Source: Candidatus Omnitrophota bacterium (GTDB taxonomy: Bacteria > Omnitrophota > Gorgyraeia > JABMRG01). Taken from it: DNA of 64,000 nucleotides. Below, piece after piece: positions 6,478 through 32,156 of this stretch. The notes below the pieces were generated by a model. It had not been told where the DNA came from. It saw only the letters and a program-made list of their open reading frames with translations, and ran no database searches. The stretch covers positions 29,238-93,237 of the forward strand of contig JBAZLY010000001.1 of the NCBI GenBank assembly GCA_041650035.1. The letters run 5' to 3'. Positions within the stretch are counted from its first letter, which is position 1. Every line of letters starts with the position of its first letter. Position numbers and translations under genes: made by a program.

Positions 6478-8130
6478 TTACCGGCCACATCCTCCGGAAT
6501 CAATTGACTTTGAAAGATACCCGCCCGTTAAAGCATCAATGTCGGCTGTAAGCTCCGCCAATCTAATCTGCTTAAGCCTAACCTTCGCATCATCATGATT
6601 TGTGTCATCAGCAAGCTCATCCATCAATCTCAATCTTTCAAAATATATCTTCGTCACCTCATTTAATATGTCATTTCTTAACTGCACCATGAGCCTGGAA
6701 CGGACATCGATGTTTGTCTGATGATAGCTCCATATCAATTCACTAAGGTCCCAATCCAACCTTATTCCCCACCCAAGATTCTTATCTTTAGGGCCTTCTA
6801 TAAAGATATCGGAATCATTCGTGCCTCCTCTATCAAGCTCTATAGTCCGGGTGTCGTTTCCATCTAGACTTAAACTTAAATCAGGAATAAGCGCTTGCGT
6901 TTTCGCGGCCTGACGCATCCACTTGATTTTCTCCGGTGACACCTCGGCGTATTCAATGGCAGCCTTTTGTATCTCGGATATGCCGGGCACCCGCGGCAAG
7001 AGCCTCCGCGGTCCGGCCATGCGCGCTTCACGATCAAAGGCAGGCGGCGGCGCTATTCTGAATAGGCCATTCTGCGTGGCGGCAAAGATAAAATCGTTTT
7101 CAGAACCCACATCAAGCATATTTATCTCTAAGCTGCTAAGCCCCGCCGAATAATCCTTCCACTTACCCTCTTTATATTCGTATTTAAAAATACCCTTGCG
7201 GCTTGCCCCAAGCAAATATTCAGGTGTAGCTATTATATAATTCATCTTCTGGCTTAGCAGGCCCTCTGAATTCAGCCGCGTCCAGCTATTACCACCGGCC
7301 TTTGACAATAAAATGCCATTGCCGGTACATATATAAACATTATCTTCATGCATCGCGATAGAATTAAGCGCCTTAAAGACGTACTCCGGTTCGGTCTCAT
7401 CGTTTGTGTCTATATTATTGTCGGACTCCTCCCCAAATTCAATTAAATTATATACCCTGTCCCACGCATCACTGCCTGTCTCCTGATAGTATACACCGTC
7501 ATCAGCGCACACATAGAAGAACCCCTTACCCGCATGGACAGACCTGATCTCCTTATTAATGAAATAGCCTTCAGCAGACCAATGCAGGCCCGAATCATAG
7601 CTTTTATATAAACCCCTTCGAGCTCCGATTATAACTATATCACCTTGAATGGAATGGGCGATACATTGTATATCCCTCTGCGCCTCATCCGGGCCGCTAT
7701 GCCGTTTTGTCCATGAACTGCCGCAATCAACACTGACATACAACCCGTTTGACGTTGCGGCATAGATAATGGATTTGCCGTTCGGATCATAAGAAAGACA
7801 ATTTATCCCCTCCCTTTCTCCTGTCAGCATAAATACCCTATCCCAGTGGCCGCCCCAGTCACAACTTTTATACACACTCTTTCGACAACCGGCAAAAACA
7901 AGGCCCGGACACTGGCCTATAACCCTTACCGAATTAACCCCAACTTCATCAATGCCGTTATCCGATTTATGCCAAATATTGCAGTCTGCGGCCCAATTAT
8001 GGACCGGGCATAAAGCCATAAGGCAAAGACCAAATATAGACAACACCCATTTCTTAAATCTTAAAACCGCCGGGTGATTCGCTGTTTTTTTAGGCCTGGC
8101 GCCTGGCCTTCTTGCCTTGCCGCGTCCCAT
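6478..8130 (-). CDS. Secreted or membrane-anchored BNR/Asp-box repeat protein with an uncharacterised C-terminal domain (550 aa)
   Basis: Asp-boxes SCDWGGHW, SVDCGSSW and SYDSGLHW, plus degenerate SKAGGNSW and TGSDAW. Basic N-terminus followed by the hydrophobic segment WVLSIFGLCLMALC. AAGGAGG SD upstream. The last roughly 190 aa carry no motif I recognise. Confidence 0.7.
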   Translation of the reverse strand: MGRGKARRPGARPKKTANHPAVLRFKKWVLSIFGLCLMALCPVHNWAADCNIWHKSDNGIDEVGVNSVRVIGQCPGLVFAGCRKSVYKSCDWGGHWDRVFMLTGEREGINCLSYDPNGKSIIYAATSNGLYVSVDCGSSWTKRHSGPDEAQRDIQCIAHSIQGDIVIIGARRGLYKSYDSGLHWSAEGYFINKEIRSVHAGKGFFYVCADDGVYYQETGSDAWDRVYNLIEFGEESDNNIDTNDETEPEYVFKALNSIAMHEDNVYICTGNGILLSKAGGNSWTRLNSEGLLSQKMNYIIATPEYLLGASRKGIFKYEYKEGKWKDYSAGLSSLEINMLDVGSENDFIFAATQNGLFRIAPPPAFDREARMAGPRRLLPRVPGISEIQKAAIEYAEVSPEKIKWMRQAAKTQALIPDLSLSLDGNDTRTIELDRGGTNDSDIFIEGPKDKNLGWGIRLDWDLSELIWSYHQTNIDVRSRLMVQLRNDILNEVTKIYFERLRLMDELADDTNHDDAKVRLKQIRLAELTADIDALTGGYLSKSIDSGGCGR

Positions 8131-11606: not shown

Positions 11607-12497
11607 TTATGCCGGCACATTATGGCAGACAAGTTCAGGGTCAATACGCCTTAATAAGCCCTTAAGCACCGTGCCCGGGCCTATCTCAAAAAAATGCTTA
11701 ATACCTCGTGAGGCAATATTCCTTATCGAGTCCTCCCATCTGGTAGTAAGGCTCATTTGGTCAACAAGGTTGGCCTTTATCATATCAGGGTCATCTTGCG
11801 CAAAAGCGGTAACATTACTAATAACAGGTATCTTGGGCGGCATAAACTGTATATCCTTTAACGCCTTTTCCAGCTTGTGGCAGGCCTGTGCCATTAACGC
11901 CGAATGAAAAGGCCCGCTCACATCAAGGACAATGACCCGTTTCGCGCCTCTATCGCCTGCCAGGATAGATGCCCTATCAATAGACTCCATGGAGCCTGAT
12001 ACGACAATCTGCCCGGGGCAATTAAGATTTGCTATCTGGGCCTTTGATTCCTGACATATATCTTCAACCTGATATGTATCAAGGCCGATAATACAGGCCA
12101 TTTTGCCCGGGTTATCATTGGAGGCCTCTTCCATAAACTGCCCTCTTAACCTTACTAGCTTAACGGCATCGCTAAAACACATTGTTTCCGCGCATACCAA
12201 GGCGCTGTATTCTCCAAGGCTAAGACCCAATACCGCTTGAGGCACATAATCGCAACGAGACAATAGATGAACTCGCAATGCTGCGATAGATGAAACTAAA
12301 ATCGCAACCTGGCAGTTCCGGGTCCGGGTAAGTTCTTCCGCGGGGCCGTCAAAACAAAGCCGCTTAAGGTCGAAACCCAGTATCTCGTTTGCCTGGTCGA
12401 ATGTCATGCGGGCTATTTCATGATTATCATAAAGCGTTTTCCCCATACCTACATACTGCGCGCCTTGCCCGGGAAACATAAAAGCAGATTCTACCAT
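11607..12497 (-). CDS. fabD: Malonyl-CoA:ACP transacylase
   Basis: FMFPGQGAQYVGMG and the active-site GLSLGEYSAL. I prefer the ATG at 12497 (ATGgTAG overlap with the fabH stop). The track's ATG at 12518 is also possible. Confidence 0.9.
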   Translation of the reverse strand: MVESAFMFPGQGAQYVGMGKTLYDNHEIARMTFDQANEILGFDLKRLCFDGPAEELTRTRNCQVAILVSSIAALRVHLLSRCDYVPQAVLGLSLGEYSALVCAETMCFSDAVKLVRLRGQFMEEASNDNPGKMACIIGLDTYQVEDICQESKAQIANLNCPGQIVVSGSMESIDRASILAGDRGAKRVIVLDVSGPFHSALMAQACHKLEKALKDIQFMPPKIPVISNVTAFAQDDPDMIKANLVDQMSLTTRWEDSIRNIASRGIKHFFEIGPGTVLKGLLRRIDPELVCHNVPA

Positions 12498-13477
12498 TTT
12501 ATTACAATAGACCCCCATGTGAAACCGGCGCCAAAGGCGACCAGTACAACAATATCCCCTTTCTTTATCCTTTTTTCGTCAACAGCCTCACAAAGGGCAA
12601 TTATCGTTGACGCGGCCGAGACATTACCGTATTTAGCAACATTAAGATACACCTTTTCTTCGGGAAGGCCTATCCTCTGTCTCACGGAATTTATTATTCT
12701 CATATTTGCCTGGTGCGGGATAAGAAGAGATATATCCTTACAGCCCAATTTAGCCTCGCAAACTGCCCTTGTAGCGGCATCAGTCATAATCCTGACAGCG
12801 GATTTAAATACCTCGCTACCGCTCATCTTGATATAATGAAGCCTGTTCTTGACGGTATCAATCGAAGCGGGGTTTTTCGACCCCCCTCCAGGCAGATATA
12901 AAAGGTTTGCCAGGTTCCCGTCTGATCCAAGATAGTGCGACAGTATGCCGCCTGACGAGACCGGCTGTAAGACAGCGGCCCCGGAGCCGTCTCCAAACAA
13001 GACACAGGTATTTCTATCCGTATAATCAGTAACAGAGCTTAATACCTCAACTCCTATGACCATAGCGTTTTTGTATACACCCGAACATATAAACTGTTTC
13101 GCGGTGACCAAGCCGTAGATAAATCCTGAACATGCCGCCCCAATATCAAAACACACGGCATTCTTTGCCCCCAGTTTGGACTGGACAAAACAAGACGTGG
13201 ACGGAAAAGGCATATCAGGGGTAATGGTGGCGACAATAATAAGCTCTAATTCTTCCGGTTTGATCTTTGCCCCTTCCAGGGCCTTGCGTGCGGCGCTTAC
13301 CGCCAGATCGCTTGATGCCGTTCCTGGCTGGGCTATCCGTCTTTTTTTTATGCCGGTCCTTGTCGTTATCCATTCATCCGACGTGTCAACCATCTTTTCA
13401 AGATCGTGATTTGTCAAAACCTTTTTCGGCACGCACATGCCAATACCTGTAATTCCGACCGGTCTATTCGTTCTCAT
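12491..13477 (-). CDS. fabH: 3-oxoacyl-ACP synthase III
   Basis: Catalytic triad contexts GAACSGF, PHQANMRI and YGNVSAAS. 328 aa. Confidence 0.93.
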   Translation of the reverse strand: MRTNRPVGITGIGMCVPKKVLTNHDLEKMVDTSDEWITTRTGIKKRRIAQPGTASSDLAVSAARKALEGAKIKPEELELIIVATITPDMPFPSTSCFVQSKLGAKNAVCFDIGAACSGFIYGLVTAKQFICSGVYKNAMVIGVEVLSSVTDYTDRNTCVLFGDGSGAAVLQPVSSGGILSHYLGSDGNLANLLYLPGGGSKNPASIDTVKNRLHYIKMSGSEVFKSAVRIMTDAATRAVCEAKLGCKDISLLIPHQANMRIINSVRQRIGLPEEKVYLNVAKYGNVSAASTIIALCEAVDEKRIKKGDIVVLVAFGAGFTWGSIVIKW

Positions 13478-13497
13478 TTAGGGCAATTCCCTTCCTG

Positions 13498-14484
13498 CTA
13501 AGCTATAGCATCAACAATATGCTGATTAACCTCAAGTTTGACAAATTCCGCGGCCTCTCTTATAGCGTTCTTTATAGCCTTGGCGGATGAGCCTCCATGA
13601 CATATGATACATACCCCGTTAACACCTAATAGCGGAGCTCCTCCATATTCGGAATAATCTATCTCTTTTTTTAATGCCCTGAAAGCGGGCAAGCTGAGAA
13701 GGGCCCCTATCTGGGTTAAGAAACCCTGTTTCAGTTTCCTTTTAAGAAAAACCGTCAGTGTGTGGGCCAATGACTCCGATACCTTGAGTACCACATTTCC
13801 AACAAACCCATCACAAACGATAACGTCATAATCGCCTGTATATATATCGCCGCCCTCCACGTTTCCTGTGAATTTTATGCCGCTGGCATTAAGCAGCCTG
13901 CGCGTCTCTTTTATGAAATCCGTCCCCTTTGCCTCCTCTTCCCCTACATTAAGCAAACCTATCTTTGCCGTTTTTTTGCCGAACAGGTATTTTTGTAAAA
14001 CATCCCCCATAACAGCATATTGCAGCAGGTGTTCGGGCTTGGGATTAATATTGGCCCCGACATCAATAAGCACGCAGAGGTCTTTCAGCGTGGGGTATAT
14101 AAGGCCTATACCCGGCCTTTGCACCCCGCTTAAAAGGCCCATCTTTAAAGCCACGGCACATACAACCGCGCCTGTATTGCCCGCTGATACAAAGGCATCA
14201 ACCTTACCATCGCGCATTAGCCTGGCGCTGACATTTATAGAAGAATCTCTTTTTTTCCGAACGCTCAAGGCCGCCGGTTCATCCATGCCAATAGCCTCCG
14301 AGGCATGGCAAACCGATATGGAGCGGGGTGTGCGGGCGCCTCTTTTAAAAAGCTCCTGCTGTATCGTTTCATTATCACCGACAAGGACTATATCATATCC
14401 AAATTCCCTGCTGGCAAGCAGGGCGCCTTCTATCACAACGCTGGGCGCATTATCCCCACCCATGGCATCTACGGCAATACGCAT
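13498..14484 (-). CDS. plsX: Phosphate acyltransferase PlsX
   Basis: MRIAVDAMGGDNAP N-terminus and VSAGNTGA, in the canonical rpmF-plsX-fabH-fabD context. Confidence 0.93.
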   Translation of the reverse strand: MRIAVDAMGGDNAPSVVIEGALLASREFGYDIVLVGDNETIQQELFKRGARTPRSISVCHASEAIGMDEPAALSVRKKRDSSINVSARLMRDGKVDAFVSAGNTGAVVCAVALKMGLLSGVQRPGIGLIYPTLKDLCVLIDVGANINPKPEHLLQYAVMGDVLQKYLFGKKTAKIGLLNVGEEEAKGTDFIKETRRLLNASGIKFTGNVEGGDIYTGDYDVIVCDGFVGNVVLKVSESLAHTLTVFLKRKLKQGFLTQIGALLSLPAFRALKKEIDYSEYGGAPLLGVNGVCIICHGGSSAKAIKNAIREAAEFVKLEVNQHIVDAIA

Positions 14485-14501
14485 AGGATACCGTCTCCTC
14501 T

Positions 14502-14702
14502 TCAGGCCTTATGTTTCTTGGTTTTTTCTTTCCTTACAACTACCTGCCTGCCCTTGTAGTAACCGCATTTCGCGCACACCCTATGCGGCATAACGATACT
14601 ACCACAATTAGGGCATTTGGCAAGAGATGGGTCAAGCAGTTTATAATGAGTGCGTCTTTTCCTTCCCCTTGCTTTTGAATGTCTCCTTTTTGGTAATCCC
14701 AT
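14502..14702 (-). CDS. rpmF: 50S ribosomal protein L32
   Basis: MGLPKRRHSKARGRKRRTH plus a CxxC...CxxC zinc ribbon (CPNCG..CAKCG). TGGAGG SD upstream. Confidence 0.93.
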   Translation of the reverse strand: MGLPKRRHSKARGRKRRTHYKLLDPSLAKCPNCGSIVMPHRVCAKCGYYKGRQVVVRKEKTKKHKA

Positions 14703-14787: not shown

Positions 14788-15009
14788 TCAAAACTTGATT
14801 TCCAAGATCTTTTTCCTGCTGTTAAATCCCGATATTATGCGAATATCTGACCTGCGCGCGTTAAAATATCCGGCAATAACCTTTAACAATGATTCATTGG
14901 CTTTGCCGTCCACCGGCGCGGCCTTCAGATATACCTTATACTCATCTCCGGGACCCTGTTTGACCTCATCCCTCGAGGACCTTGGCTGGACCTTTACACG
15001 GACGTTCAT
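14788..15009 (-). CDS. DUF167 (YggU) family protein
   Basis: VKVQPRSSRDEV...LKAAPVDGKANESL is the typical YggU signature. ATGA overlap with yggT. Confidence 0.85.
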   Translation of the reverse strand: MNVRVKVQPRSSRDEVKQGPGDEYKVYLKAAPVDGKANESLLKVIAGYFNARRSDIRIISGFNSRKKILEIKF

Positions 15010-15305
15010 TTAAGCCTTTGGGCCAGGTCCATCAGCGTATGCACTAAAAAACTCTGAATAAAAATTAAACACAGTATAGCGATAATAGGCGAAACATCAA
15101 TCGCCCAAAACTGCATCTTCAACCCTCTTCTGATGGGGCTTAAAAGGGGTTCTGTGGCACGCTGTAAGAATTGAACTATAGGGTTAAAAGGGTCTGGGTT
15201 AACCCAGCTTATAAGCGCCTTGATTATTATCATCCAATAGAGTAATGTGATGACGATATCAAGCACCTTTGCTATACTCATGATAAAATTGCTCAAAACA
15301 AACAT
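15006..15305 (-). CDS. yggT: YggT family membrane protein
   Basis: ALISWVNPDPFNP...TEPLLSPIRR...IDVSPI is YggT-like. Start set at the ATG at 15305, which has GGAGG 8 nt upstream. The track's start is a TTG at 15341. Confidence 0.85.
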   Translation of the reverse strand: MFVLSNFIMSIAKVLDIVITLLYWMIIIKALISWVNPDPFNPIVQFLQRATEPLLSPIRRGLKMQFWAIDVSPIIAILCLIFIQSFLVHTLMDLAQRLK

Positions 15306-15360
15306 GCAGCATACCTCCATTTTTACAGCCGGGCAATACAACTTTTTTATAAACGCCGGT

Positions 15361-16152
15361 TCAGGCCAATTGCCTTGACCTGTCGAAGGCAGCCTTCACA
15401 GCCTCCCGGACAATAGCCTCAAAACCTCGTTTTTTAAAGACCTTCAATGCCGCCTCTGTCGTGCCGCCTTTTGAGGCTACATCCTGCTTGAGAAAAACCG
15501 GGTATTTGTTCAGGCTGTACTGCAAAAAACTGGCACCAAATATTGTCTGCGTCACAAGCCTGAATGCCAAATCTTTTTTTATGCCTAAGGAAACCGCTGA
15601 CTTGGCCATAGCCTCCATCAGCAAGAAAAGGTACGCAGGCCCGCTGCCTGACACAGCCGTCACGGCGTCCATATGCCTCTCATCCAATACAACCGTCTTG
15701 CCAATACTGTTAAATATTAATTCCGTGTTACGCTTATCCTGTCTGGTGACGGCATTGCTGTAAGATAAAGCCGTCATCGCGCAATGGGCAAGTGCTGGCA
15801 TATTCGGCATAGCCCTGACAATCTTCCTGACCCGGGTCTTTTTTTTAATAAAATTTATCCTTTTGCCCGCTACTATGGATATCAGGAGCCTGCCCTGTAA
15901 GGCATCCGCCATATCCTCAAGAACCGGACCCATATCCTGGGGTTTAACCGATATTATAACAATATCGCTTTTTTGACAAGCGTCTGTATTAGAGCGTGAA
16001 ACCCAAACACCATATTCAGAACCCAGATATTTTAATCTGGTCGCGTCTTTATCAGCGATAAAAATACGCGTCTTACCCGGGTACTTTTTGAGCGTCAGCC
16101 CCCTTAATATGGCCTCGCCCATTTTGCCGCATCCTATGATCGATATCCTCAA
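15361..16152 (-). CDS. proC: Pyrroline-5-carboxylate reductase
   Basis: IIGCGKMGEAI Rossmann motif, MPNMPA, VSGSGPAY, SKGGTTEAAL. Confidence 0.92.
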   Translation of the reverse strand: MRISIIGCGKMGEAILRGLTLKKYPGKTRIFIADKDATRLKYLGSEYGVWVSRSNTDACQKSDIVIISVKPQDMGPVLEDMADALQGRLLISIVAGKRINFIKKKTRVRKIVRAMPNMPALAHCAMTALSYSNAVTRQDKRNTELIFNSIGKTVVLDERHMDAVTAVSGSGPAYLFLLMEAMAKSAVSLGIKKDLAFRLVTQTIFGASFLQYSLNKYPVFLKQDVASKGGTTEAALKVFKKRGFEAIVREAVKAAFDRSRQLA

Positions 16153-16162
16153 TCGCTTATCC

Positions 16163-16852
16163 TCAATTCACTTGACTATTGAATATGGCTGAACCTATCC
16201 TGACGATCGTCGCGCCTTCTTCAACGGCTATTTCAAAGTCCTGCGTCATCCCCATAGAAAGCTCTTTGATATTGCGGTAACCGGCAGAGACGATACTATC
16301 CCTCAACAAGCGCAAGTTGTTGAAATACGGTCTAACATCTTCTCTATTCTTGACTATAGGAGCTATTGTCATAAGACCTATCAGATTAATATTAGGAAAA
16401 GACGACGTTTGTTTCACGAATCCACAAACATCACCGGGGGCAATACCGTATTTAGAAATTTCACCTGATATATTAACTTCGATTAAACAATCAATGCGCT
16501 TACCTGACAGATATGCCTGTTTATCTATCTCGCGGGCAAGATTAATACTGTCAAGGGAATGTATGACATCAAACATACTAAGGCACAGGGCTGTTTTATT
16601 TGTCTGAAGATGGCCTATCATGTGCCATTTAACAGCCTTGGCCGCCTGGCCAAGAAGATTATATTTAAAAATAGCATCCTTGACCCTGTTTTCCCCAATA
16701 TCCGAAACCCCTGATACCAAAACATCGTGAAGCTGCTTAATGGTGGCTGTCTTAGTTACAGGCATCAACCGGATATCTGCCGGATCGCGGCCCGCCTTTT
16801 TGGCCGCATTCTCTATTCTTTCCTTAACCAGGGCAAGGTTTCTGATAACCAT
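16163..16852 (-). CDS. yggS: PLP-binding protein YggS/PLPBP family
   Basis: LMPVTKT (PLP lysine), HMIGHLQTNK, LSMGMTQDFEIA. Confidence 0.92.
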   Translation of the reverse strand: MVIRNLALVKERIENAAKKAGRDPADIRLMPVTKTATIKQLHDVLVSGVSDIGENRVKDAIFKYNLLGQAAKAVKWHMIGHLQTNKTALCLSMFDVIHSLDSINLAREIDKQAYLSGKRIDCLIEVNISGEISKYGIAPGDVCGFVKQTSSFPNINLIGLMTIAPIVKNREDVRPYFNNLRLLRDSIVSAGYRNIKELSMGMTQDFEIAVEEGATIVRIGSAIFNSQVN

Positions 16853-16859
16853 TTGGCAT

Positions 16860-16888
16860 ACTTTAACATAATATAATATTCAAGTCAA
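16860..16888 (-). promoter_or_regulatory. Candidate promoter of yggS in the 86-nt ftsA-yggS gap
   Basis: Minus strand TTGACT (16888-16883), 17 nt, TAAAGT (16865-16860). The yggS ATG begins 8 nt after the -10, and no SD is present. Confidence 0.35.
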
Positions 16889-16938
16889 TAATTTTATAGC
16901 TTTTCACGGCGGCTTAGCAAACCCAAATATAAAGGTTT

Positions 16939-18165
16939 TTAGAAATAATCGTTGTAAAGTCCTCTGGCATATTCAGATAAAGCCAATAACCAGTTTTTCG
17001 GACCAAGTTTTAATAATGATACCTTCGACTGCCTGGCTTCGGCCCCTAACTGGAGCAATCCTGCGGTGATAAAATATATATGGCATGGTAAAGGTTTAGG
17101 CGAAACACCTAAACCCGTTATACGCCCAATACGCACGGGTATACCCAAAACAGATTCGGCAAGTTCAATACAGCCATCCATAATTACCGGCTGGCCGCAC
17201 ATAACGGCACCACTGGGTATATTCCCTGAATAGCCTGAAGCCTTAAGCTCTCTTTTGATCTCATTGAATATGCGCGTATATTCTTCAACGAGGATAGCCC
17301 TCAAATCCAACTTTTGAGAGACCTTTTTAAGAAAACCCGCGCGCATATCAGGCCCGGTTACTGGCCCATCAAGCAAAAGCCTCTCTATCTTGAGTTTTTC
17401 AGCTTCCGCTTCAGGTATACATAATTCCCGGGCAAGCCTTTTAGTAATATCGCAGCCCCCGACAGGCAACGTCTTAAGAAACACCGGCCGCGACTGCGAG
17501 ACGATCAATATATCAGTCATATCCGCGCCAATATCGATAAAAACCACACCGAGACTCTTCTCGTGCTCCAGGACAACAGCCCTTAATCCGGCCAATGGCG
17601 AGATAATGGTATCCTCAATGCCTAAACCTGAATACTTCACCGCTTTTTCAAGATTATCTATCACAGAGATCTTTGCTGTGACAAGGAACATGTCCGTCTC
17701 AAGTTTCATGCCAAACATGCCTACGGGATTGGCTATCCCCGGCTCCGAATCAACAACAAAACCGCCTCTGGAGCAATAAATAATACCCCTTTCATACGGC
17801 ATATGCACTGACTTCGCGTTGGCAATAACCCTATCCACATCATGTCTGGTTATCTCGTTGTCTTTATCGGATATAATTATCTGCCCATGGGATAAAAAAC
17901 CTTTTAAATGTGTGCCCGATATGTTTAAAAAAACAGACTGCGCCTTTTTCCTGCTAATATCTTCAGCCTCACAGACAGCCGTCAATACGGCATCCGAAAG
18001 ACCTTTGATATCCGAGACCACACCTTTCTTAAAACAATCATGGTACCCAACCCCGTAGCCTAAGATATTCAACGCGCCCTTTTGTTCGGACAGATCAGCT
18101 ATAAGACAGCTCACCTTTGACGAGCCTATATCAAGAGCGGTTATAAACGCCTCTTTTTTCTTCAT
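16939..18165 (-). CDS. ftsA: Cell division protein FtsA
   Basis: Actin-fold N-terminus ALDIGSSKVSCLI, later IDIGADMTDI. C-terminal amphipathic tail. Lies last in the dcw cluster. Confidence 0.92.
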   Translation of the reverse strand: MKKKEAFITALDIGSSKVSCLIADLSEQKGALNILGYGVGYHDCFKKGVVSDIKGLSDAVLTAVCEAEDISRKKAQSVFLNISGTHLKGFLSHGQIIISDKDNEITRHDVDRVIANAKSVHMPYERGIIYCSRGGFVVDSEPGIANPVGMFGMKLETDMFLVTAKISVIDNLEKAVKYSGLGIEDTIISPLAGLRAVVLEHEKSLGVVFIDIGADMTDILIVSQSRPVFLKTLPVGGCDITKRLARELCIPEAEAEKLKIERLLLDGPVTGPDMRAGFLKKVSQKLDLRAILVEEYTRIFNEIKRELKASGYSGNIPSGAVMCGQPVIMDGCIELAESVLGIPVRIGRITGLGVSPKPLPCHIYFITAGLLQLGAEARQSKVSLLKLGPKNWLLALSEYARGLYNDYF

Positions 18166-18241: not shown

Positions 18242-19063
18242 TTAGCGCGGAACGACAACAATATCCTCAAACCTTAAATCTATGATCTTTGCCTTACGGT
18301 TCCTGAAGGACAAATCGCTTAAAACCTTTTTAATAGTATCTAACTTGTCCTTAAGCTGGTGCGTGCCCAATTCAACCCTGGTCCCGTCGTCAAGTATTAA
18401 GACGGGGCTATCCCCGTCATAAACATTGACCTCTTTTACCATAGAATCGCCTGTCAAGCAAGACCCTTCAGCGGTATCATTGATGTCATTTATTATATTA
18501 ATGGCCTTTTGCAGCCTCTTTTTATGTTCATGCCTCATGCCTGAAAATGATTTTGAGCTTACATCGATACCGGAGACAACCATAAGAACAGGTTGTTTCG
18601 ATAAAAGAGGCTGGGATATTATAACAGCGTCATCGGAGACAAGATAATAACTCCCCGATTCAATCTGACAGACAGGCCTTCTTAGTTTATAAGATATGAA
18701 CAAGGCATCCGGCAATCGCCTATGGATGACCACGTCCCTTATTTCAAGGTAATCCCTTTCAATGTCATATTCACATTTTTTGATGTCCAGCATAAATATA
18801 TTCACACCCTTGTGTGAATATAAATCCCGCGCTACGGAGGTCTCAATCTTGAGCTGGGACCTGTCCATAACCTCAATACGCTTTATATCAAAATAATCGG
18901 AATGCAACAGAAGATGCTGGACACCCTTGATAAGAAACACTGCAATAAAAATAAAAAATAAGCAGGGCATAAACCTTATAACCATATCCAACAGCGGAAA
19001 TACCCGTCTCCTAACCCTTGGTTTTCTCGTGTTACGCGGGGATTTTTTTTCTTTTTTCGCCAT
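18242..19063 (-). CDS. ftsQ: Cell division protein FtsQ (POTRA-containing)
   Basis: Basic N-terminus, one TM segment (MPCLFFIFIAVFLI), then a POTRA-like FDIKRIEV region. Position between ddl and ftsA. First ATG taken (19063); the track's start is a TTG at 19099. Confidence 0.85.
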   Translation of the reverse strand: MAKKEKKSPRNTRKPRVRRRVFPLLDMVIRFMPCLFFIFIAVFLIKGVQHLLLHSDYFDIKRIEVMDRSQLKIETSVARDLYSHKGVNIFMLDIKKCEYDIERDYLEIRDVVIHRRLPDALFISYKLRRPVCQIESGSYYLVSDDAVIISQPLLSKQPVLMVVSGIDVSSKSFSGMRHEHKKRLQKAINIINDINDTAEGSCLTGDSMVKEVNVYDGDSPVLILDDGTRVELGTHQLKDKLDTIKKVLSDLSFRNRKAKIIDLRFEDIVVVPR

Positions 19064-19125
19064 AATAAGGTCTCTTTCTCCTTTAAACAACCGCGGCAAA
19101 ACATGCGTTAACCGCGGCCGGTCTT

Positions 19126-20088
19126 TTATTTATTATCCATGACATCCGCTTTTGCGTTTTTCGAAAAATGTTTTTCAGCCGCATATTTTAGGATATCAAG
19201 GCACATCCGGGTAAAATCAATTCCGGCAGCCCGGGCGGCCTTGGGAAGCAGGCTTGTCTGGGTAAAACCCGGTATCGTGTTTACCTCAAGGACTGTTATA
19301 ATATTATTCGGCTTATCCAGGATCATATCCACCCTTGATAGGGATTTGCATCCCAAGGCCTTGTGGGCAGCCAGCCCCAGATCCTGGGCACGACATGAAA
19401 GTACACCAGGGATATCCGCGGGAACACCGTATTCACTTGCGCCTGGCGTATACTTTGAATAATAATCATAGAAGCCGCTCTTAGGCTGTATAGAAATAAC
19501 AGGCAGTGGTTCATCGCCCAGTATACCTACCGTGATGTCCGCGCCCCGGGCGTAATCCTCAATAATAATCTTGCTGTCATAGACAAAGGCCTTTTCAATA
19601 GCAGGCATTATATCTACCTTAGACCTGACCATGCTCATCCCGATACTGGAACCCTCATTGCTCGGTTTGATAACACACGGGAGACTGATATCTCTTACCT
19701 GGCAAGGGTCAAAACCCTCCCTTTCCATAATAATATAATTAGGTGTCGGTATGCCGCGCGCGCGAAATATCTCTTTTGACAGCGCCTTGTCAAACGACAG
19801 CTTACTTGCCCTCGGGCCTGAACCGGTATAGGGGATACCCCATTCGTCAAGCAATGCCTGCACGCTGCCGTCTTCACCAAACCTCCCGTGCAAGGCGATA
19901 AAAACAATGTCTATGCCAAGCGCGCTCAAATCCCTTTTTAACGATTCCGGGTCCATAACGTCGACCAGAACGGTATTGATACCTGCCGAACATAGCGCGC
20001 CGAACACGGCATCGGCAGATCTAACCGATACATCCCTTTCGCTTGAAGGCCCCCCTGACAAAACTGCCACCTTGCCAAAATTTTGCAT
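19126..20088 (-). CDS. ddl: D-alanine--D-alanine ligase
   Basis: GGPSSERDVS, ALHGRFGEDG, ATP-grasp core, LEVNTIPG. Confidence 0.93.
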   Translation of the reverse strand: MQNFGKVAVLSGGPSSERDVSVRSADAVFGALCSAGINTVLVDVMDPESLKRDLSALGIDIVFIALHGRFGEDGSVQALLDEWGIPYTGSGPRASKLSFDKALSKEIFRARGIPTPNYIIMEREGFDPCQVRDISLPCVIKPSNEGSSIGMSMVRSKVDIMPAIEKAFVYDSKIIIEDYARGADITVGILGDEPLPVISIQPKSGFYDYYSKYTPGASEYGVPADIPGVLSCRAQDLGLAAHKALGCKSLSRVDMILDKPNNIITVLEVNTIPGFTQTSLLPKAARAAGIDFTRMCLDILKYAAEKHFSKNAKADVMDNK

Positions 20089-20099
20089 TTATCCCCTTT

Positions 20100-20984
20100 T
20101 TAGATTATCTCAACCTCTGTCTCAAGCGTAAAATTAAAAACGGATTTTACGCGTTTTTTTACTAATGATATAAGCCTAATTATGTCTTTCGAACTGGCAT
20201 GGCCCTTATTAATTATAAAATTGGCATGCCTTGTCGAGACCTGCGCCCCGTCTATACTGCGGCCTTTTAACCCGCATCTGTCTATCATTTCAGCAGCACT
20301 AATAGCTGAACCGGCTGGATTTTTAAACACGCACCCTGCGCTGGGGGCCGTATAATCCTGGCTGGATAATCTGCGGGTCAAATATTTATTCATAAGGCCT
20401 TCAATAAGCGTCTTCCTTGACCTTTTTAATTTAAAACAGGCGGATAGAACAATTAGACCTTTTAAACCGCTATGCCTATATTTAAAACATATATCATCAC
20501 GGTTTAATATCCTGATATTGCCGGCCTTATCCATGCACTCTGCGTATCTCAATATGCGCGAGACACTACCGCCAAAAGCGCCGGCATTCTGGAAAACAAC
20601 CCCTCCTATTGTCGCAGGTATGCCAATAAGAAATTCCGCTCCGCTTAGTGAAAGCCCCTGGGCAAGATCACATAACCTGTTTACCATGACCCCCGCACCA
20701 CATATGATATCATTGCCGCGGGGCGCGGCACTTTTAAAGTAAGTGGACGATAACTTCAAAAAAACATTGTTCAACCCATTATCGCTGATTATTATATTAC
20801 TACCATTGCCTATAGGCAACAGGGAAATTTTATTACTCCTGCATAGAAAAAGCATGTCCTTAACGCCGTTGATATTTTCGGGTATATACATGCCGATAGA
20901 CTTACCGCCCGTTTTCATGGTAGTATAAAACCTCATGGGGGCGTTGGGGATAAATCTTCCGGCAAGACGCCCCTCACGTTTCAT
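20100..20984 (-). CDS. murB: UDP-N-acetylenolpyruvoylglucosamine reductase
   Basis: FAD-binding LPIGNGSNII and the catalytic region SAGCVFKNP. Confidence 0.92.
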   Translation of the reverse strand: MKREGRLAGRFIPNAPMRFYTTMKTGGKSIGMYIPENINGVKDMLFLCRSNKISLLPIGNGSNIIISDNGLNNVFLKLSSTYFKSAAPRGNDIICGAGVMVNRLCDLAQGLSLSGAEFLIGIPATIGGVVFQNAGAFGGSVSRILRYAECMDKAGNIRILNRDDICFKYRHSGLKGLIVLSACFKLKRSRKTLIEGLMNKYLTRRLSSQDYTAPSAGCVFKNPAGSAISAAEMIDRCGLKGRSIDGAQVSTRHANFIINKGHASSKDIIRLISLVKKRVKSVFNFTLETEVEII

Positions 20985-21018
20985 GGAGGCAATATCATTT
21001 AGCAGTCCACGGACAGGT

Positions 21019-22398
21019 CTAATTTATTCGCTCCTTTTTAAACCTCATGACAAATTCTCCGGATATCCTGCCTATATCTCCCGCCCCCAGAAAAAGGAGC
21101 AGGTCTCCCGGCCTGACGAAACCCATCAGGTACTCAATCAATTTTTCTTTTGCCATATAGGTAGAATTGACCTTCTTTATTTTAATAACCTCATCGTATA
21201 TACACATGGACGTGACCCCGCATATAGGCTTTTCATCAGCAGCATAAATATCGGTAAGGATCAGGCAGTCGGTGCCGTAAAATGCCCGGGCGAATTCCTT
21301 CTTCAGAAATTTGGTCCTGGTATAGCGATGGGGTTGAAATATGGATACTATCCGCCTGCGTTTCATATTCACCGCCGCCTTTAAGGTGGCAACAATCTCG
21401 GTAGGGTGATGGGCATAATCATCTATTATCATGACATCATCTATACACGCCTTCTCTTGAAACCTGCGCTGGGCCCCCCTGTATTGACATATTGCCCGCC
21501 TAACAATGTCAGCGCCTATACCTATATCAAAAGCGGTAAGCATAGCGGCCATAGAGTTTAACACATTATGTTCGCCAGGCACATTGATTCTGAATCTGCC
21601 GATATCGCGATTGGCAAAAACAAGCCCGAATTCAGACCCCATCGGCCCTAATACGATATCTTTAACACGCAGGTCATCGCTTGATGATTTGCCGTATCTT
21701 AATACGCGGTTTTTGCAATCCTTGATCATATTTGTCATATACGGGTCTTGGCCCCAGCATATAACAGCCCCGGCCGGCCGGACATTCTCCATGAATCTGA
21801 AATACGCGTTTTGTATTTGCTCAATACCTTCATAATAATCAAGATGCTCAAGGTCTATATTAGTGATAATCCCGTAATCCGGCCTAAGATAAAGAAATGA
21901 GCCATCAGATTCATCGGCTTCGGTCACAAAATACTCTCCGCCCCCTATAAAGGCATTGCCGTTAAGATACGGGACCAGGGCCCCGACCATACCGCTGGGA
22001 TCAAGCCCCGATTCTCTTAATACTGTGGCTACCATCGAAGATGTTGTTGTCTTTCCATGCGCGCCGGTAACAGCAACGCACTTTTTCCCCTCTCCGAGAT
22101 AAGCCAAAAACTCTCCTCTCTTAAAAACCGGTATCCCCTTCTTCCCTGCCTCGGCAAGCTCGGGATTGTGCGCCAATACAGCCGAAGAGTAGACTACAAT
22201 ATCATTATCCTTGATATTTTCCCAGCAATGCCCTATAGCGATATCCGCGCCTTCGGATATAAGCCTGTCGGTTAGATAACTCGGCTTTATGTCCGAACCT
22301 GAAACCCTGTGACCTTTCTTAAGGCAAAGCCAGGCAATACCGCTCATCCCGATACCGCCTATCCCAATAAAATGTATCTTTTTTTTGCTATTCAGCAT
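21019..22398 (-). CDS. murC: UDP-N-acetylmuramate--L-alanine ligase
   Basis: IHFIGIGGIGMSGIA and the Mur ligase P-loop GAHGKTTT. Confidence 0.93.
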   Translation of the reverse strand: MLNSKKKIHFIGIGGIGMSGIAWLCLKKGHRVSGSDIKPSYLTDRLISEGADIAIGHCWENIKDNDIVVYSSAVLAHNPELAEAGKKGIPVFKRGEFLAYLGEGKKCVAVTGAHGKTTTSSMVATVLRESGLDPSGMVGALVPYLNGNAFIGGGEYFVTEADESDGSFLYLRPDYGIITNIDLEHLDYYEGIEQIQNAYFRFMENVRPAGAVICWGQDPYMTNMIKDCKNRVLRYGKSSSDDLRVKDIVLGPMGSEFGLVFANRDIGRFRINVPGEHNVLNSMAAMLTAFDIGIGADIVRRAICQYRGAQRRFQEKACIDDVMIIDDYAHHPTEIVATLKAAVNMKRRRIVSIFQPHRYTRTKFLKKEFARAFYGTDCLILTDIYAADEKPICGVTSMCIYDEVIKIKKVNSTYMAKEKLIEYLMGFVRPGDLLLFLGAGDIGRISGEFVMRFKKERIN

Positions 22399-23491
22399 TT
22401 GTAAGTCCTATTATTTGCCCGGCGAGTTCCCTGCCTGCCTGGGGTCTTGAAAAGATCCTCATATTACGCCTCATTAGTCCCATTTCATTATTATCACATA
22501 GAATGGAAAAAACCGTGTCTTTAAGTTTGCCTGCCTGCAATTCCCTTTGCGGCAGCACAACCGCGGCGCCTTGTTTTGCCAGGTGTTGAGCGTTCGCGGC
22601 CTGGTGCCCTCCTGCCCCGGGATACGGGATAAAAACAGCAGGAACCCCGAAAAAAGCCAACTCGGATATAGTCGTCGCGCCGGCCCTGCATATGACAAGA
22701 TCGGCCGCCTTGTAGCACAAGGCCATCTTATCACAGAACCCCCTGACCCAGTGGACTATCTTATTCACCCTATAGACCTCTTCGACAGCTTCCCTGTCAG
22801 CATATCCTGTTATATGGGCTATTTGCACGGAGTCTCTTTCCAAGATATCAAGCATCCCAACCATGTCTGAAACAGCCTTATTGATGGCAGAGGCCCCGGA
22901 GCTGCCTCCTATAACAAGTAACGTCTTTCTCTTATCTGAAAATTGCAAAGCGGAGAGCGCCTCATGCCTTGTTATCATCTTTAATCCGTTTATCATCTCT
23001 TGCCTTATGGGGTTTCCGGTAAGAACATATCTACCCCCTTTTTGCGCCTGCGATCCTTCAAAACTCAAACATATCCTGTCCGCGATTTTACACAATATAC
23101 CGTTAGCGCGGCCTAAAACGACATTTTGTTCATGTATCAGAGTCTTTATGCCCATAGCGGACGCCGTCTGTATTATAGGGCCGGAGATATATGCACCAAA
23201 ACCGACCGCTATATCCGGGTTGATCCTAACTATCAAGGCCTCTGCCTTAATGCGGCAGCGAATCAACCTGGCCAAAAAACCAAACCATTTCATTGAAACC
23301 CCATAAGGCATTTTCGGCACGGCAAAGACGCAATAATCAAACCCGTACATGTTCATCATGGTCTCGGCATTATACGATTTATCAACGATAAAAAATAAAT
23401 CAGAATAACCCTCTTCTTTAAGTTTCTGGGCCAATGCTATAGCTGGAAATATGTGGCCGCCCGTTCCTCCGCAAACAATCAATATCTTCAT
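22388..23491 (-). CDS. murG: Lipid II-forming N-acetylglucosaminyltransferase MurG
   Basis: GGTGGHIFPAIALA, and C-terminal RAGATTISE...PYPGAGGHQ..NA. Confidence 0.93.
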   Translation of the reverse strand: MKILIVCGGTGGHIFPAIALAQKLKEEGYSDLFFIVDKSYNAETMMNMYGFDYCVFAVPKMPYGVSMKWFGFLARLIRCRIKAEALIVRINPDIAVGFGAYISGPIIQTASAMGIKTLIHEQNVVLGRANGILCKIADRICLSFEGSQAQKGGRYVLTGNPIRQEMINGLKMITRHEALSALQFSDKRKTLLVIGGSSGASAINKAVSDMVGMLDILERDSVQIAHITGYADREAVEEVYRVNKIVHWVRGFCDKMALCYKAADLVICRAGATTISELAFFGVPAVFIPYPGAGGHQAANAQHLAKQGAAVVLPQRELQAGKLKDTVFSILCDNNEMGLMRRNMRIFSRPQAGRELAGQIIGLTNAE

Positions 23492-23552
23492 AAACCCTCA
23501 CGTCGTATTATATACCCAGATCATGCTACTGATTCTATCGCTTGATAAATCC

Positions 23553-24638
23553 TTAACGCCTGTGTTTAGCTATATTCAGCAATAGCCCGATGCTGGCTAA
23601 ACTATACACCAAAGACGTACCACCATAACTTATAAAAGGCAGGGGCATGCCCTTTGTCGGAATAATAGCCGTAACAGCGGCTATATTTATTAGCACCTGC
23701 AGGGCTATCATCGTTACCAGGCCAAAAGCCAAAAACTGTCCGAACAGGTCCCTCGCGAAATACGCTATCTTAACCCCCAACCATATAAGGACCGCGAACA
23801 ATATTATCACCCCGATACTGCCAAACATGCCAAGCTCTTCCCCTATAATAGAAAAAATGAAATCAGTGTGGGCCTCGGGCAAATAAAAGAATTTTTGTTT
23901 TGAATGCGCCAGGCCCACGCCAAAAATACCGCCGCTACCCATAGCGATCATGGATTGTATTATCTGAAAACCCGCGCCTCTCGGATCAGACCATGGATCG
24001 ATAAAAGCTATAATACGCTTGATCCTGTATGGCTTGGTGATGATAAGTCCGATTACAAATATTATACCGGGCACCATGACCATAAACAACTGTTTTATAT
24101 CAACGCCCGCCATGAACGCCATTATTATTATAAGCAGGGCGAGCGCTACAGCTGTTCCGAGATCAGAACCGGCCAATATAAGCACCAGACATACGCCCAA
24201 GGCTGTCATAAGCGGTAAAAAACCGTAGAAAAAATCCTTAATCTCCGATTGTTTACGTGAAAGTATGTCGGCCGCGTAAAGGACAAGTGATAATTTCGCT
24301 ATCTCGGACGGCTGAAAACTTATCGGTCCTATACCTATCCAGCGCCTGGCCCCGCCCGCGGACCTGCCTATCCCGGGGATAAAAACCATAAGCAGAAGAA
24401 GGATGGAAAACAACAAAAAAGGCTTGGATATATTCTTGAGCCTGCCGTAGTCAAAACTCATAAAGAATACGGCTGCCATAACCCCAAAAAACAAAAATAT
24501 AATATGCCTTTTTAGAAAATAAGCACTGTCATGATATTTTTCATAAGCAAAGACACAACTGGATGAATAGATCATAACAACCCCTACCGCTATCAACATC
24601 AATACGATCAGAGAAAGTATTACCCGCGTTTTTCTCAT
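23553..24638 (-). CDS. ftsW: SEDS-family peptidoglycan polymerase FtsW
   Basis: About 10 TM segments, SEDS motifs (FQPSEIAK, PEAHTDFIFS, LPFISYGGTS), dcw position. Confidence 0.9.
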   Translation of the reverse strand: MRKTRVILSLIVLMLIAVGVVMIYSSSCVFAYEKYHDSAYFLKRHIIFLFFGVMAAVFFMSFDYGRLKNISKPFLLFSILLLLMVFIPGIGRSAGGARRWIGIGPISFQPSEIAKLSLVLYAADILSRKQSEIKDFFYGFLPLMTALGVCLVLILAGSDLGTAVALALLIIIMAFMAGVDIKQLFMVMVPGIIFVIGLIITKPYRIKRIIAFIDPWSDPRGAGFQIIQSMIAMGSGGIFGVGLAHSKQKFFYLPEAHTDFIFSIIGEELGMFGSIGVIILFAVLIWLGVKIAYFARDLFGQFLAFGLVTMIALQVLINIAAVTAIIPTKGMPLPFISYGGTSLVYSLASIGLLLNIAKHRR

Positions 24639-26011
24639 TACAAGACCTGACCTTTACCCGTAACCGGAATAAACCTTAAAACAGACTCCTTAAAGGCCTC
24701 GCCCCGGGCCGCATAACTTTTATACATATCGAAACTCGCGCACATGGGTGACAACAAGACAAAATCTCCGGGCACAGCCTTATCGCGGGCTATTCCTACA
24801 GCCTCTTCCATGCACGATGCCTCTTTTACCTGCGTGAAAGCGGATAGATCACGTTTTATCTTTCCGCGGGCCTCCCCAATCACTACCATCATCCGGACCT
24901 TCTGCCTGACCAGGCCGCCTATAGCTGTGAAATCGCTTCCCTTATCCCTGCCGCCGGCTATCAATACCGCCTTACCCGAAAACGCTTTAAGGGCGGCAGC
25001 ACAGGCATCGACACTTGTAGACTTTGAATCATCTATATATCTTACCCCATTGAATGCGGCAATACGCTCGCACCTATGGGCAAGGCCTTTAAAATTCTTT
25101 AATACGGCACGCATCCCGTCCAAGGTTGCGCCCGCGAGACGGGCACAACAGCATGAAGCCAGGATATTGGAATAATTATGGGCACCTGACAACAATACCT
25201 CATCTACCGAACATAATCTCTGATTCTCTCCGAACATGTTGGCAACAAAAAAACCGTCTTTTAAATAAAAACCTGCGACAGTCTTCTTCATGCTGAAATA
25301 GTATATTTTCGACCTGGGCATCGGCTGAAGCGAAACCAGTTTATCATCATCACTATTTAACACAAAGAAATCATTTTGCGTCTGGTGCTTATAGATATTT
25401 CTTTTGCAACGAAAGTAATCGTTGAAATCACGGTGAACATCAAGATGGTTTTGGGTGATATTAGATATTAAAGCGACCCTTGGCTTGAAATCATCCACAT
25501 ACTTAAGCTGAAAAGAACTTGCTTCAAGAACAATATGATGATCTGGACGCGCGGACAGTACAATTGACGAAAAGGCCCTGCCTATATTTCCGCAAAGGAT
25601 GGATTTCCGGCCCGACTCCTTCAACATCATATCGATAAGAGTAACGATAGTGCTTTTCCCGTTACTGCCTGTAACAGCTATTATGTCATTCGTCAAAAAC
25701 CATGATGCGGCCTCAATCTCGCTTACTACAGGTATGGATCTGCGCTGGGCAATTACTATCGGCCAGGCAACGTCAGACACCCCGGGACTTGTAACAATAA
25801 TATCCGATCTCTCTATCAGATCCTGCCTGCATAAGCCTATGTATGCCTCGATCCCGGAGGCAAGAAGCTCTGAAACAGTTTCACGAAGCTCGCCGGAATT
25901 ATTGGAATCCATGGCAAAGACACGGGCACCCATATGCTTCAGTAGCATAGACACCGCCCTGCCGCTTATGCCCAGGCCTATTACCGAAACATTCTTTTCC
26001 CTTACTTCCAT
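24638..26011 (-). CDS. murD: UDP-N-acetylmuramoylalanine--D-glutamate ligase
   Basis: VIGLGISGRA Rossmann motif and the Mur ligase P-loop GSNGKST. Confidence 0.93.
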   Translation of the reverse strand: MEVREKNVSVIGLGISGRAVSMLLKHMGARVFAMDSNNSGELRETVSELLASGIEAYIGLCRQDLIERSDIIVTSPGVSDVAWPIVIAQRRSIPVVSEIEAASWFLTNDIIAVTGSNGKSTIVTLIDMMLKESGRKSILCGNIGRAFSSIVLSARPDHHIVLEASSFQLKYVDDFKPRVALISNITQNHLDVHRDFNDYFRCKRNIYKHQTQNDFFVLNSDDDKLVSLQPMPRSKIYYFSMKKTVAGFYLKDGFFVANMFGENQRLCSVDEVLLSGAHNYSNILASCCCARLAGATLDGMRAVLKNFKGLAHRCERIAAFNGVRYIDDSKSTSVDACAAALKAFSGKAVLIAGGRDKGSDFTAIGGLVRQKVRMMVVIGEARGKIKRDLSAFTQVKEASCMEEAVGIARDKAVPGDFVLLSPMCASFDMYKSYAARGEAFKESVLRFIPVTGKGQVL

Positions 26012-26012
26012 A

Positions 26013-27104
26013 TCAGTATAATTTTAATGACACCATTGTAAAAAGTGATAATATCGCGGCAATAATCCAAAAACGGACCACTATCTTGGATTCATGCCAT
26101 CCGCGCATCTGCAGATGATGATGAAAAGGCGCGCACAAAAAAATCCTCCTGCGCCTGATCTTGAATGAGGCCACCTGCAACATTACGGATAACGCCTCAA
26201 AAACAAAAATACCTCCGGCAATAATAAGCAGCGTCTCTTTTTTCACACAGCACGAAACAACACCGATGCCTCCTCCAAGGGCCAAGGAGCCTGTATCACC
26301 CATAAAAACACTCGCGGGATATGAATTAAACCATAAAAACCCTAAACCCGCTCCCGTTAACGCGGCACAGTAAACGCAAAGCTCTCCCGCCCCCGGTATA
26401 TATTGCATAAAAAGATAATTAGATATCTGCACGTGACCGGCGGCATACCCTATCACGGAATATGCCAAGGCCACCATGATCATACACCCTATAGCCAGTC
26501 CATCCAAACCGTCGGTCAGGTTTACGGCATTAGAGGCCCCTGTTATCACAACCATCACGAACAGGATATAAAAAATTCCAGCATTAAAAACAAGGTTTTT
26601 TAAAAAAGGCACATATATACTTGAATCAATATTAGTATCAAGAAAAAGAAAGGCGCCGACTATAAAACCAAGCGCTATCTGCCCTAAAAATTTCATCCTC
26701 TTATTAAGACCTGGGCCTTTTTTTGACTTCAATTTAACATAATCATCGCAGAAACCCAGCACCCCCAGCCAGATAGTAGAGAATATCGTAAGCAGGATAT
26801 ACCTGTTATCCAGCCTCGCCCATAACAATGTCGAGATTATGACAGAAGATATTATGATAAGACCTCCCATCGTAGGCGTGCCCTGCTTGCCTTTATGGGC
26901 TGAATAAATACCGGGGACCTCTTCTTCCGTCCGCACCCGTTCACCAATATTAAATTTCTTTAAAATACTTATTATGCGGGGTCCTATTACAATACTTATT
27001 AAAAATGCCGTTACAATCGCCCCGACAGTCCTGAATGTAATATAACGAAACACGTTAAAACCAAAAAAAACACCTTTTAGCGGATACAGCAAATGATAAA
27101 ACAA
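26013..27104 (-). CDS. mraY: Phospho-N-acetylmuramoyl-pentapeptide transferase
   Basis: GTPTMGG, NAVNLTDGLDGLA, PFHHH. Polytopic membrane protein. Confidence 0.94.
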   Translation of the reverse strand: MFYHLLYPLKGVFFGFNVFRYITFRTVGAIVTAFLISIVIGPRIISILKKFNIGERVRTEEEVPGIYSAHKGKQGTPTMGGLIIISSVIISTLLWARLDNRYILLTIFSTIWLGVLGFCDDYVKLKSKKGPGLNKRMKFLGQIALGFIVGAFLFLDTNIDSSIYVPFLKNLVFNAGIFYILFVMVVITGASNAVNLTDGLDGLAIGCMIMVALAYSVIGYAAGHVQISNYLFMQYIPGAGELCVYCAALTGAGLGFLWFNSYPASVFMGDTGSLALGGGIGVVSCCVKKETLLIIAGGIFVFEALSVMLQVASFKIRRRRIFLCAPFHHHLQMRGWHESKIVVRFWIIAAILSLFTMVSLKLY

Positions 27105-27169
27105 CCTATTCCTCCTTATTTGAAAAACTCAAGGCTTTTTGTCGCTGGGAAAAACTGCCGCGGCCCGGT

Positions 27170-31772: not shown

Positions 31773-32156
31773 TTAATCGTTTACTTCTTTTGCTATAGCC
31801 TCATTGCTAAGAGAAAACATGCTTAAAAACAAATTGGATACAGGCACCGGCAACCTTACAGGCCTAACCACGGCCTCTGCCTCAACAGGCACCCTTACTT
31901 TTACAGTAACCGAATCGAGAGGCATTGCGGCATGATCATTGATATGCTCTTTAAATTTATTGTCAAGCCTCGCGGATGATTCAAGCACGGATACGTTATA
32001 TTGCAAGTCATTATTTCTGTCAACCAATAGCTCGAGGGCCTTTTTTGAGTTATTTATAGCATAACCGCATTCGATAAGGCTGGTATATTGATAGACATAG
32101 ATAAGCGATAAAAATGCCACAATAGTTATTATAGAGGCGGCTTTTGCCACTTTCAT
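31773..32156 (-). CDS. ftsL: FtsL-like cell division protein (127 aa)
   Basis: Single N-terminal TM helix followed by a coiled-coil-like region. Position between rsmH and ftsI, with a 4-nt overlap with rsmH. Confidence 0.7.
   Translation of the reverse strand: MKVAKAASIITIVAFLSLIYVYQYTSLIECGYAINNSKKALELLVDRNNDLQYNVSVLESSARLDNKFKEHINDHAAMPLDSVTVKVRVPVEAEAVVRPVRLPVPVSNLFLSMFSLSNEAIAKEVND

Follow-up and report, generated by a model that had tools for sequence, protein, structure and literature searches.

Does a bacterium whose division and cell wall (dcw) gene cluster ends at ftsA, with yggS following where ftsZ is expected, keep ftsZ elsewhere in its genome, or has it lost the gene? The question is raised by a 64-kb stretch of a Candidatus Omnitrophota contig (hereafter the window, to whose positions coordinates refer unless another locus is named), in which an unbroken dcw cluster runs on the minus strand from mraZ to ftsA (33656-16939; Pfam assignment of open reading frames, ORFs). 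Our analysis indicates that ftsZ was in all likelihood lost rather than moved, early in Omnitrophota and from an otherwise intact cluster, and that FtsA has remained functional but uncoupled from FtsZ. The junction at issue comprises three features:

16939-18165, minus strand: ftsA, 408 amino acids (aa) (TIGR01174; Pfam SHS2_FTSA and FtsA)
16853-16938, minus strand: ftsA-yggS spacer, 86 nucleotides (nt), the slot of ftsZ in other bacteria; by sequence non-coding and without FtsZ similarity
16163-16852, minus strand: yggS, pyridoxal phosphate (PLP)-binding YggS family (TIGR00044, 175.3 bits against a cutoff of 106.25; Pfam Ala_racemase_N)

The ftsA stop lies at 16939 and yggS starts at 16852, and ftsZ is not found immediately downstream of ftsA. 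A sequence-only reading of the window had described this gap as 86 nt long and without coding capacity, which proved exact, and its gene order and coordinates from mraZ to ftsA and on through yggS, proC, yggT and DUF167 were borne out by Pfam and NCBIfam. Six-frame inspection of the whole window revealed no tubulin signature of the GGGTG[ST]G type, and tblastn of Escherichia coli FtsZ against the window gave no match even at E ≤ 10. The remaining sizeable ORFs belong to unrelated families or to no family, and ftsZ was likewise not found in about 19 kb of contig flanking the window (L091 and L094). An ftsZ remnant in the spacer was considered and ruled out; the equivalent spacers of relatives measure 38-232 nt and consist mostly of a promoter element. 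The product of yggS is a single-domain, PLP-binding protein of fold type III and scores higher than the curated TIGR00044 threshold.

To place the junction in context, we compared it across assemblies and relatives. The exact FtsA is deposited as MFA5068539.1 and MFA5369388.1 under the NCBI name "Candidatus Omnitrophota bacterium", and membership in Omnitrophota rests on the source names of this protein and of the clade members. Identical FtsA and junction sequences occur in a Joint Genome Institute (JGI) contig (3300037067) and in the Logan SRR18595300 assembly, and an ENA assembly contains other stretches of the contig. Synteny in relatives, a check proposed by the sequence-only reading, revealed the order ftsQ-ftsA-yggS-proC-yggT without ftsZ at 82, 59 and 53% FtsA identity (two NCBI metagenome-assembled genomes, MAGs, and a 115-kb JGI contig). 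Eight further loci with this order emerged when metagenome contigs were scanned specifically for the clade, none of them with a tblastn match to FtsZ at E ≤ 10 up to 10 kb on either side. In all, the ftsA-yggS junction without ftsZ is common to about 11 related lineages from different samples.

More distant members extend this pattern. No ftsZ follows ftsA in the 1.14-Mb single-contig Omnitrophota MAG CP070655.1 (P0123; 44% FtsA identity) or at P0188 (32% identity), an unlabelled sequence grouped by residue pattern and synteny. Because the same junction occurs where FtsA is only 32-82% identical, the loss of ftsZ is ancient and not a recent excision. The earlier description of ftsZ as "excised" is therefore fair as an outcome, though not as a recent event in this genome. 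CP070655.1 itself has no yggS, and all that is left of proC behind ftsA is an 82-aa fragment (L097, 11352-11596), implying that the downstream block is eroding in this reduced genome; we found no literature on CP070655. Two sequences tried as FtsA outgroups, P0038 and P0040, were dropped as not being relatives of Omnitrophota.

As a positive control, we used 83 ftsA loci from other phyla (30-35% FtsA identity), drawn from a contig scan with a mixed FtsA alignment. In 81 of them ftsZ lies directly downstream of ftsA, in agreement with the expectation from which the question started, and four more canonical loci (L099, L113, L114 and L116) also have ftsZ downstream. One of the two exceptions is a locus that stops too early. 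The only real exception is L046 (Spirochaetota MAG DAOMHE010000063.1, 7596-8801), whose canonical FtsA carries Asp-Arg-Glu (DRE) at the three positions discussed below and where nothing resembling FtsZ is encoded in the 3.6 kb after ftsA. Neither yggS, proC nor yggT occurs within 10 kb of ftsA at any of the 83 loci, so the sequence-only statement that yggS and yggT usually lie just downstream of ftsZ does not hold in general. In Gram-positives and cyanobacteria, yggS does follow ftsZ.

To examine FtsA for traces of uncoupling, we aligned the E. coli protein with 82 canonical and 35 clade FtsAs (E. coli numbering). Window FtsA lacks the three docking residues for the FtsZ C-terminal peptide in subdomain 2B: D242, R300 and E303 are replaced by R243, E295 and R298 (codons 17439-17437, 17283-17281 and 17274-17272). 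D242, which never varies among the canonical sequences, is A, R or K in the clade; R300 is present in 82/82 canonical sequences, against 33 clade members with E and 2 with G; E303, retained in 80/82 canonical sequences, is N, S, K, R or D in the clade. Within the part of subdomain 2B that binds FtsZ, E303 forms a salt bridge with R379 of FtsZ (PMC13423804), equivalent to the salt bridge between R344 of Thermotoga FtsZ and FtsA subdomain 2B (PMC5256927). Our literature search on an R300E change in FtsA found nothing.

The same contrast is visible locus by locus. All 83 non-Omnitrophota loci, 81 of them with ftsZ downstream, carry either DRE (80) or DRQ (3), whereas Omnitrophota loci carry RER, KEN, AEK, QAK or AQW. 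The DRQ form belongs to the Chloroflexota loci L019, L052 and L072, which keep D242 and R300 and have ftsZ downstream; it represents a form of the docking site specific to that lineage. In an exhaustive profile search, about two dozen of the best 150 representatives at 50% identity had a degenerate triad, in many residue combinations, and those among them that carry labels are all labelled Omnitrophota. Such variability of the 2B positions across Omnitrophota suggests relaxed constraint on an unused surface rather than a new conserved interface.

Despite these replacements, the protein belongs to the FtsA family. Window FtsA scored 242.5 bits against TIGR01174 (cutoff 175.85), 73.8 bits against PF02491 and 70.5 bits against PF14450. 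Its AlphaFold2 model (predicted local distance difference test, pLDDT, 85.9; predicted template modelling score 0.83) has an actin-like fold in which the 1C (SHS2) subdomain replaces 1B, and the best Foldseek matches were all FtsA structures (7q6d, 7q6f and 7q6i; template modelling scores 0.77-0.91), ahead of PilM and MreB. The ratio of nonsynonymous to synonymous substitution rates (dN/dS) of ftsA is 0.083 against the 82%-identical relative: the gene is under purifying selection. Together with conservation over the full length, this value rules out a decaying relic.

The nucleotide-binding motifs (E. coli D210, G212, G336, K258 and others) are kept in 35/35 clade FtsAs, except that G337 is replaced by Q, and most of the fold motifs are kept as well. 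This residue, Q325 in window FtsA (codon 17193-17191), is one of five, with H42, C44, I349 and H362 (E. coli S43, G45, P361 and P374), that are conserved within the clade at positions where different residues are near-invariant in canonical FtsAs. Since G337 belongs to the GG nucleotide-binding motif, ATP handling may differ in clade FtsA. A putative amphipathic, membrane-targeting C-terminal helix (residues 389-407) is predicted at a pLDDT of only 44-52, with a hydrophobic moment of 0.36 against 0.57 for the E. coli helix. In contrast to the 2B positions, the C-terminal tail shows strong conservation of the motif GPKNW...LY.DYF. The hairpin region of 2B is shorter than in canonical FtsA, and its model has low confidence.

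The absence of ftsZ is phylum-wide in the literature and already on record. Seymour et al. 2023 analysed 421 Omnitrophota genomes, and their Supplementary Information describes species representatives without an ftsZ homologue, with one occurrence excepted; that FtsZ is 89% identical to an archaeal protein and was attributed to contamination or recent transfer, and the neighbouring Ratteibacteria do carry ftsZ (PMC10066038). Pende et al. 2021 lists Omnitrophica among the FtsZ-less PVC (Planctomycetes, Verrucomicrobia and Chlamydiae) phyla, with FtsZ absent in 4/5 genomes and, in the Supplementary Data, FtsA present and FtsZ absent in three (PMC8178401). FtsZ had earlier gone undetected in Rivas-Marin et al. 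2016, where incompleteness could not be ruled out. The loss in Omnitrophota is overlooked by two recent PVC papers, one of them a FEMS 2025 review that calls planctomycetes the only free-living bacteria dividing without FtsZ. The sequence-only list of FtsZ-less lineages, confined to Chlamydiae, Planctomycetes and some Mollicutes, was correspondingly incomplete, as Omnitrophota had been recorded. Its suggestion that ftsZ is missing from its slot and that the locus marks an FtsZ-independent lineage is supported.

The present analysis adds to this record the structure of the locus, the finding that FtsA has lost its docking triad, and a conserved promoter of the leaderless type. Pende et al. 2021 and Seymour et al. 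2023 record presence and absence, and the parts consulted contain no analysis of how the locus is built, of docking residues in FtsA or of a promoter.

Several points weigh against an early loss with an uncoupled FtsA. The portion of the genome examined for ftsZ comprises the window and its flanks, about 83 kb of contig. Triad loss and ftsZ absence are probably linked through one ancestral event, so that their association effectively amounts to one evolutionary observation. D242 and R300 are said to take part in the FtsZ-binding pocket. Within the triad, it is the assignment of E303 to FtsZ binding that the consulted literature backs (PMC13423804). "Omnitrophica bacterium OLB16", assigned to the phylum by name, has FtsZ adjoining FtsA. 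Henriques 2025 counts Ca. Omnitrophota among the phyla whose dcw genes are "highly conserved", without per-gene detail (PMC12283558). The scaffold role of FtsA proposed below is, finally, one that we infer.

On the reading we prefer, ftsZ was lost on the Omnitrophota stem, and the FtsZ-docking surface of FtsA decayed; our data and the literature support both steps. FtsA itself may have been retained at the membrane as an ATP-binding scaffold to which FtsQ, the FtsL-like protein and septal peptidoglycan synthesis by FtsW-FtsI are still linked. At the locus, ftsA now abuts a yggS-proC-yggT-DUF167 block apparently driven from its own strong, conserved, leaderless-type promoter. As a tentative extension, which we regard as possible though short of probable, division could proceed through an FtsA-centred, FtsZ-independent divisome, in which FtsA filaments on the membrane, without the docking residues and with a C-terminal tail that is new and conserved, would take over the positioning and activation of FtsQ, the FtsL-like protein and FtsW-FtsI.

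The alternative that survives best, although we judge it unlikely, is that another cytoskeletal organiser replaced FtsZ, with FtsA as an adaptor or minor player; candidates are a bactofilin, MreB (for which Chlamydia is the precedent) or a tubulin-like protein too divergent to be recognised. Chlamydiae do divide without FtsZ by means of MreB and FtsK (PMC12283558, PMC5147048), the 2B surface of FtsA is altered rather than deleted and could bind a new partner, and a bactofilin-domain gene lies on the same contig, about 8 kb past the high-coordinate end of the window (L094, 1619-2173). However, the analysis identified no such partner, the variability of the 2B positions points to relaxed constraint, and none of the examined loci contains a tubulin-like ORF. 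The bactofilin-domain product, of 184 aa, also has an HTH_17 domain, as does the product of the next gene, and might serve as a cytoskeletal element in an organism without FtsZ.

Relocation, with a canonical ftsZ elsewhere in the genome and only the gene order changed, appears far less probable. It would accommodate the retention of ftsA, ftsQ, ftsW and ftsI, all of them needed by an FtsZ-based divisome, the description of dcw genes as conserved in Ca. Omnitrophota by Henriques 2025 (PMC12283558), and the roughly 83 kb over which this genome was seen. Against it stand the species representatives of Seymour et al. 2023, which lack ftsZ apart from the archaeal-like contaminant, and the 4/5 Omnitrophica genomes without it in Pende et al. 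2021; this phylum-wide absence makes relocation unlikely. Moreover, the loss of a triad intact or nearly so at 83/83 control loci would be unexpected if FtsZ still docked on FtsA. The sequence-only argument that retention of ftsA favours relocation thus finds no support. Finally, a mis-join that dropped ftsZ at the ftsA-yggS junction, for which only the general error rate of MAG assembly speaks, can be set aside, because the junction recurs in independent JGI and Logan assemblies (with parts of the contig also in ENA) and, with its conserved spacer promoter, in about 11 related lineages.

The spacer contains a promoter-like sequence that the sequence-only reading had pointed out:

16860-16888, minus strand: sigma-70-type promoter TTGACT-N17-TAAAGT with a TG extended -10 (identified by sequence), the -10 ending 7 nt before the yggS ATG

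Comparison of ten clade loci revealed a 32-nt element, ATTGACTTRAGTATTATATTATGNTAAAGTAT, that is almost invariant in 10/10 (the window, with the spacers of L083-L085 and L100-L108 named as equivalents). It is kept despite saturated synonymous sites and despite spacer lengths that range from 38 to 232 nt. In these ten loci the -10 always ends 6-8 nt ahead of the yggS ATG and no Shine-Dalgarno sequence precedes yggS, which implies a leaderless yggS mRNA. The spacer promoter is accordingly predicted, from these sequence features, to be strong and to give a leaderless yggS-proC-yggT transcript. The interval between the hexamers is also conserved, hinting at an additional binding factor. Distant members have similar promoters of the TTGACA-N17-TAAATT type after ftsA.

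The rest of the cluster follows the canonical order, mraZ-rsmH-ftsL-ftsI-murE-murF-mraY-murD-ftsW-murG-murC-murB-ddl-ftsQ-ftsA, with ftsL placed by position and topology only:

33219-33656, minus strand: mraZ, first gene of the dcw cluster (Pfam MraZ, E = 5e-41)
33041-33202, minus strand: 53-codon ORF in the mraZ-rsmH interval, without a Pfam or NCBIfam match
32153-33031, minus strand: rsmH (mraW) (Pfam Methyltransf_5, E = 3e-94)
31773-32156, minus strand: ftsL-like gene, by position and topology only; N-terminal transmembrane segment followed by a helix, as in FtsL
29987-31717, minus strand: ftsI, PBP3-type transpeptidase (Pfam Transpeptidase and PBP_dimer)
20100-29997, minus strand: murE, murF, mraY, murD, ftsW, murG, murC and murB (a Pfam match for each ORF)
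19126-20088, minus strand: ddl (Pfam Dala_Dala_lig_C/N)
18242-19099, minus strand: ftsQ (Pfam FtsQ_DivIB_C, E = 1e-8)
15361-16152, minus strand: proC (Pfam P5CR_dimer and F420_oxidored)
15006-15341, minus strand: yggT (Pfam YGGT)
14788-15009, minus strand: DUF167 (yggU) (Pfam DUF167)
11607-14702, minus strand: rpmF, plsX, fabH and fabD, a conserved downstream synteny block (Pfam; L32p from Pfam on the identical contig L001)

The ftsL-like ORF has no family match in Pfam or NCBIfam. The product of the 53-codon ORF is basic and helical-looking, and the related loci end before reaching it. On L001, a JGI contig from the same organism, yggT (7654-7818) is called at 54 aa against 99-111 aa and matches the window gene along only a part, at 88% identity, its neighbours being 100% identical; the difference is a local assembly error or a strain variant.

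Two further features were observed upstream of the cluster. A bacterial type A RNase P RNA lies at 36782-37376 on the minus strand (119.8 bits against a gathering score of 100), with 595 nt against a model of 367 positions; large insertions add about 32 nt to the P3 loop and about 80 nt near the 3′ end, and a further stretch has 92 nt against 15 in the model. The adjoining gene (37841-38578, minus strand) encodes a PVC-type protein with a coiled coil and a C4 zinc ribbon that matches the chlamydial CT398/CdsZ family (PF24481, PF02591); its NF047363 match, at 82 bits, is below the cutoff.

Set against the canonical FtsA-FtsZ proto-ring of E. coli and Thermotoga maritima, the window shares the gene order from mraZ to ftsA and, in FtsA, the ATP motifs and the fold with its 1C/SHS2 subdomain, together with a C-terminal helix that is predicted here; it differs in the absence of ftsZ and in a docking triad that is R243/E295/R298 in the window and variable across the phylum. 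Chlamydiota are likewise PVC-affiliated and have lost ftsZ while keeping peptidoglycan synthesis genes (PMC5147048, PMC12283558), but they have also lost ftsA (PMC8178401, PMC12283558) and reportedly use MreB and FtsK, whereas FtsA and a compact, complete dcw cluster stay in the window. Planctomycetota share phylum-level ftsZ loss within the PVC group; there, however, ftsA and ftsB are mostly lost, as are many mur genes in several orders, and the cluster is fragmented. In contrast to Planctomycetota, Omnitrophota have a contiguous cluster and an ftsA under purifying selection. The window is an instance of the Omnitrophota trait recorded by Pende et al. 2021 and Seymour et al. 2023, with FtsA present and ftsZ absent at its slot.

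Division without FtsZ in walled bacteria is an open question, for which Chlamydiae and Planctomycetes are the only groups studied so far, and these two have lost ftsA as well. Omnitrophota, with their textbook dcw cluster, an FtsA under selection and no FtsZ, constitute a natural experiment on FtsA alone. Loss of the D242/R300/E303 triad provides a concrete molecular signature of the uncoupling, as well as a simple sequence marker for FtsZ-independent FtsAs in metagenomes. If the FtsA-centred divisome is true, Omnitrophota would, as far as the phylum survey of Pende et al. 2021 goes, be unique at phylum level in having kept the actin-like half of the proto-ring and discarded its tubulin-like half.

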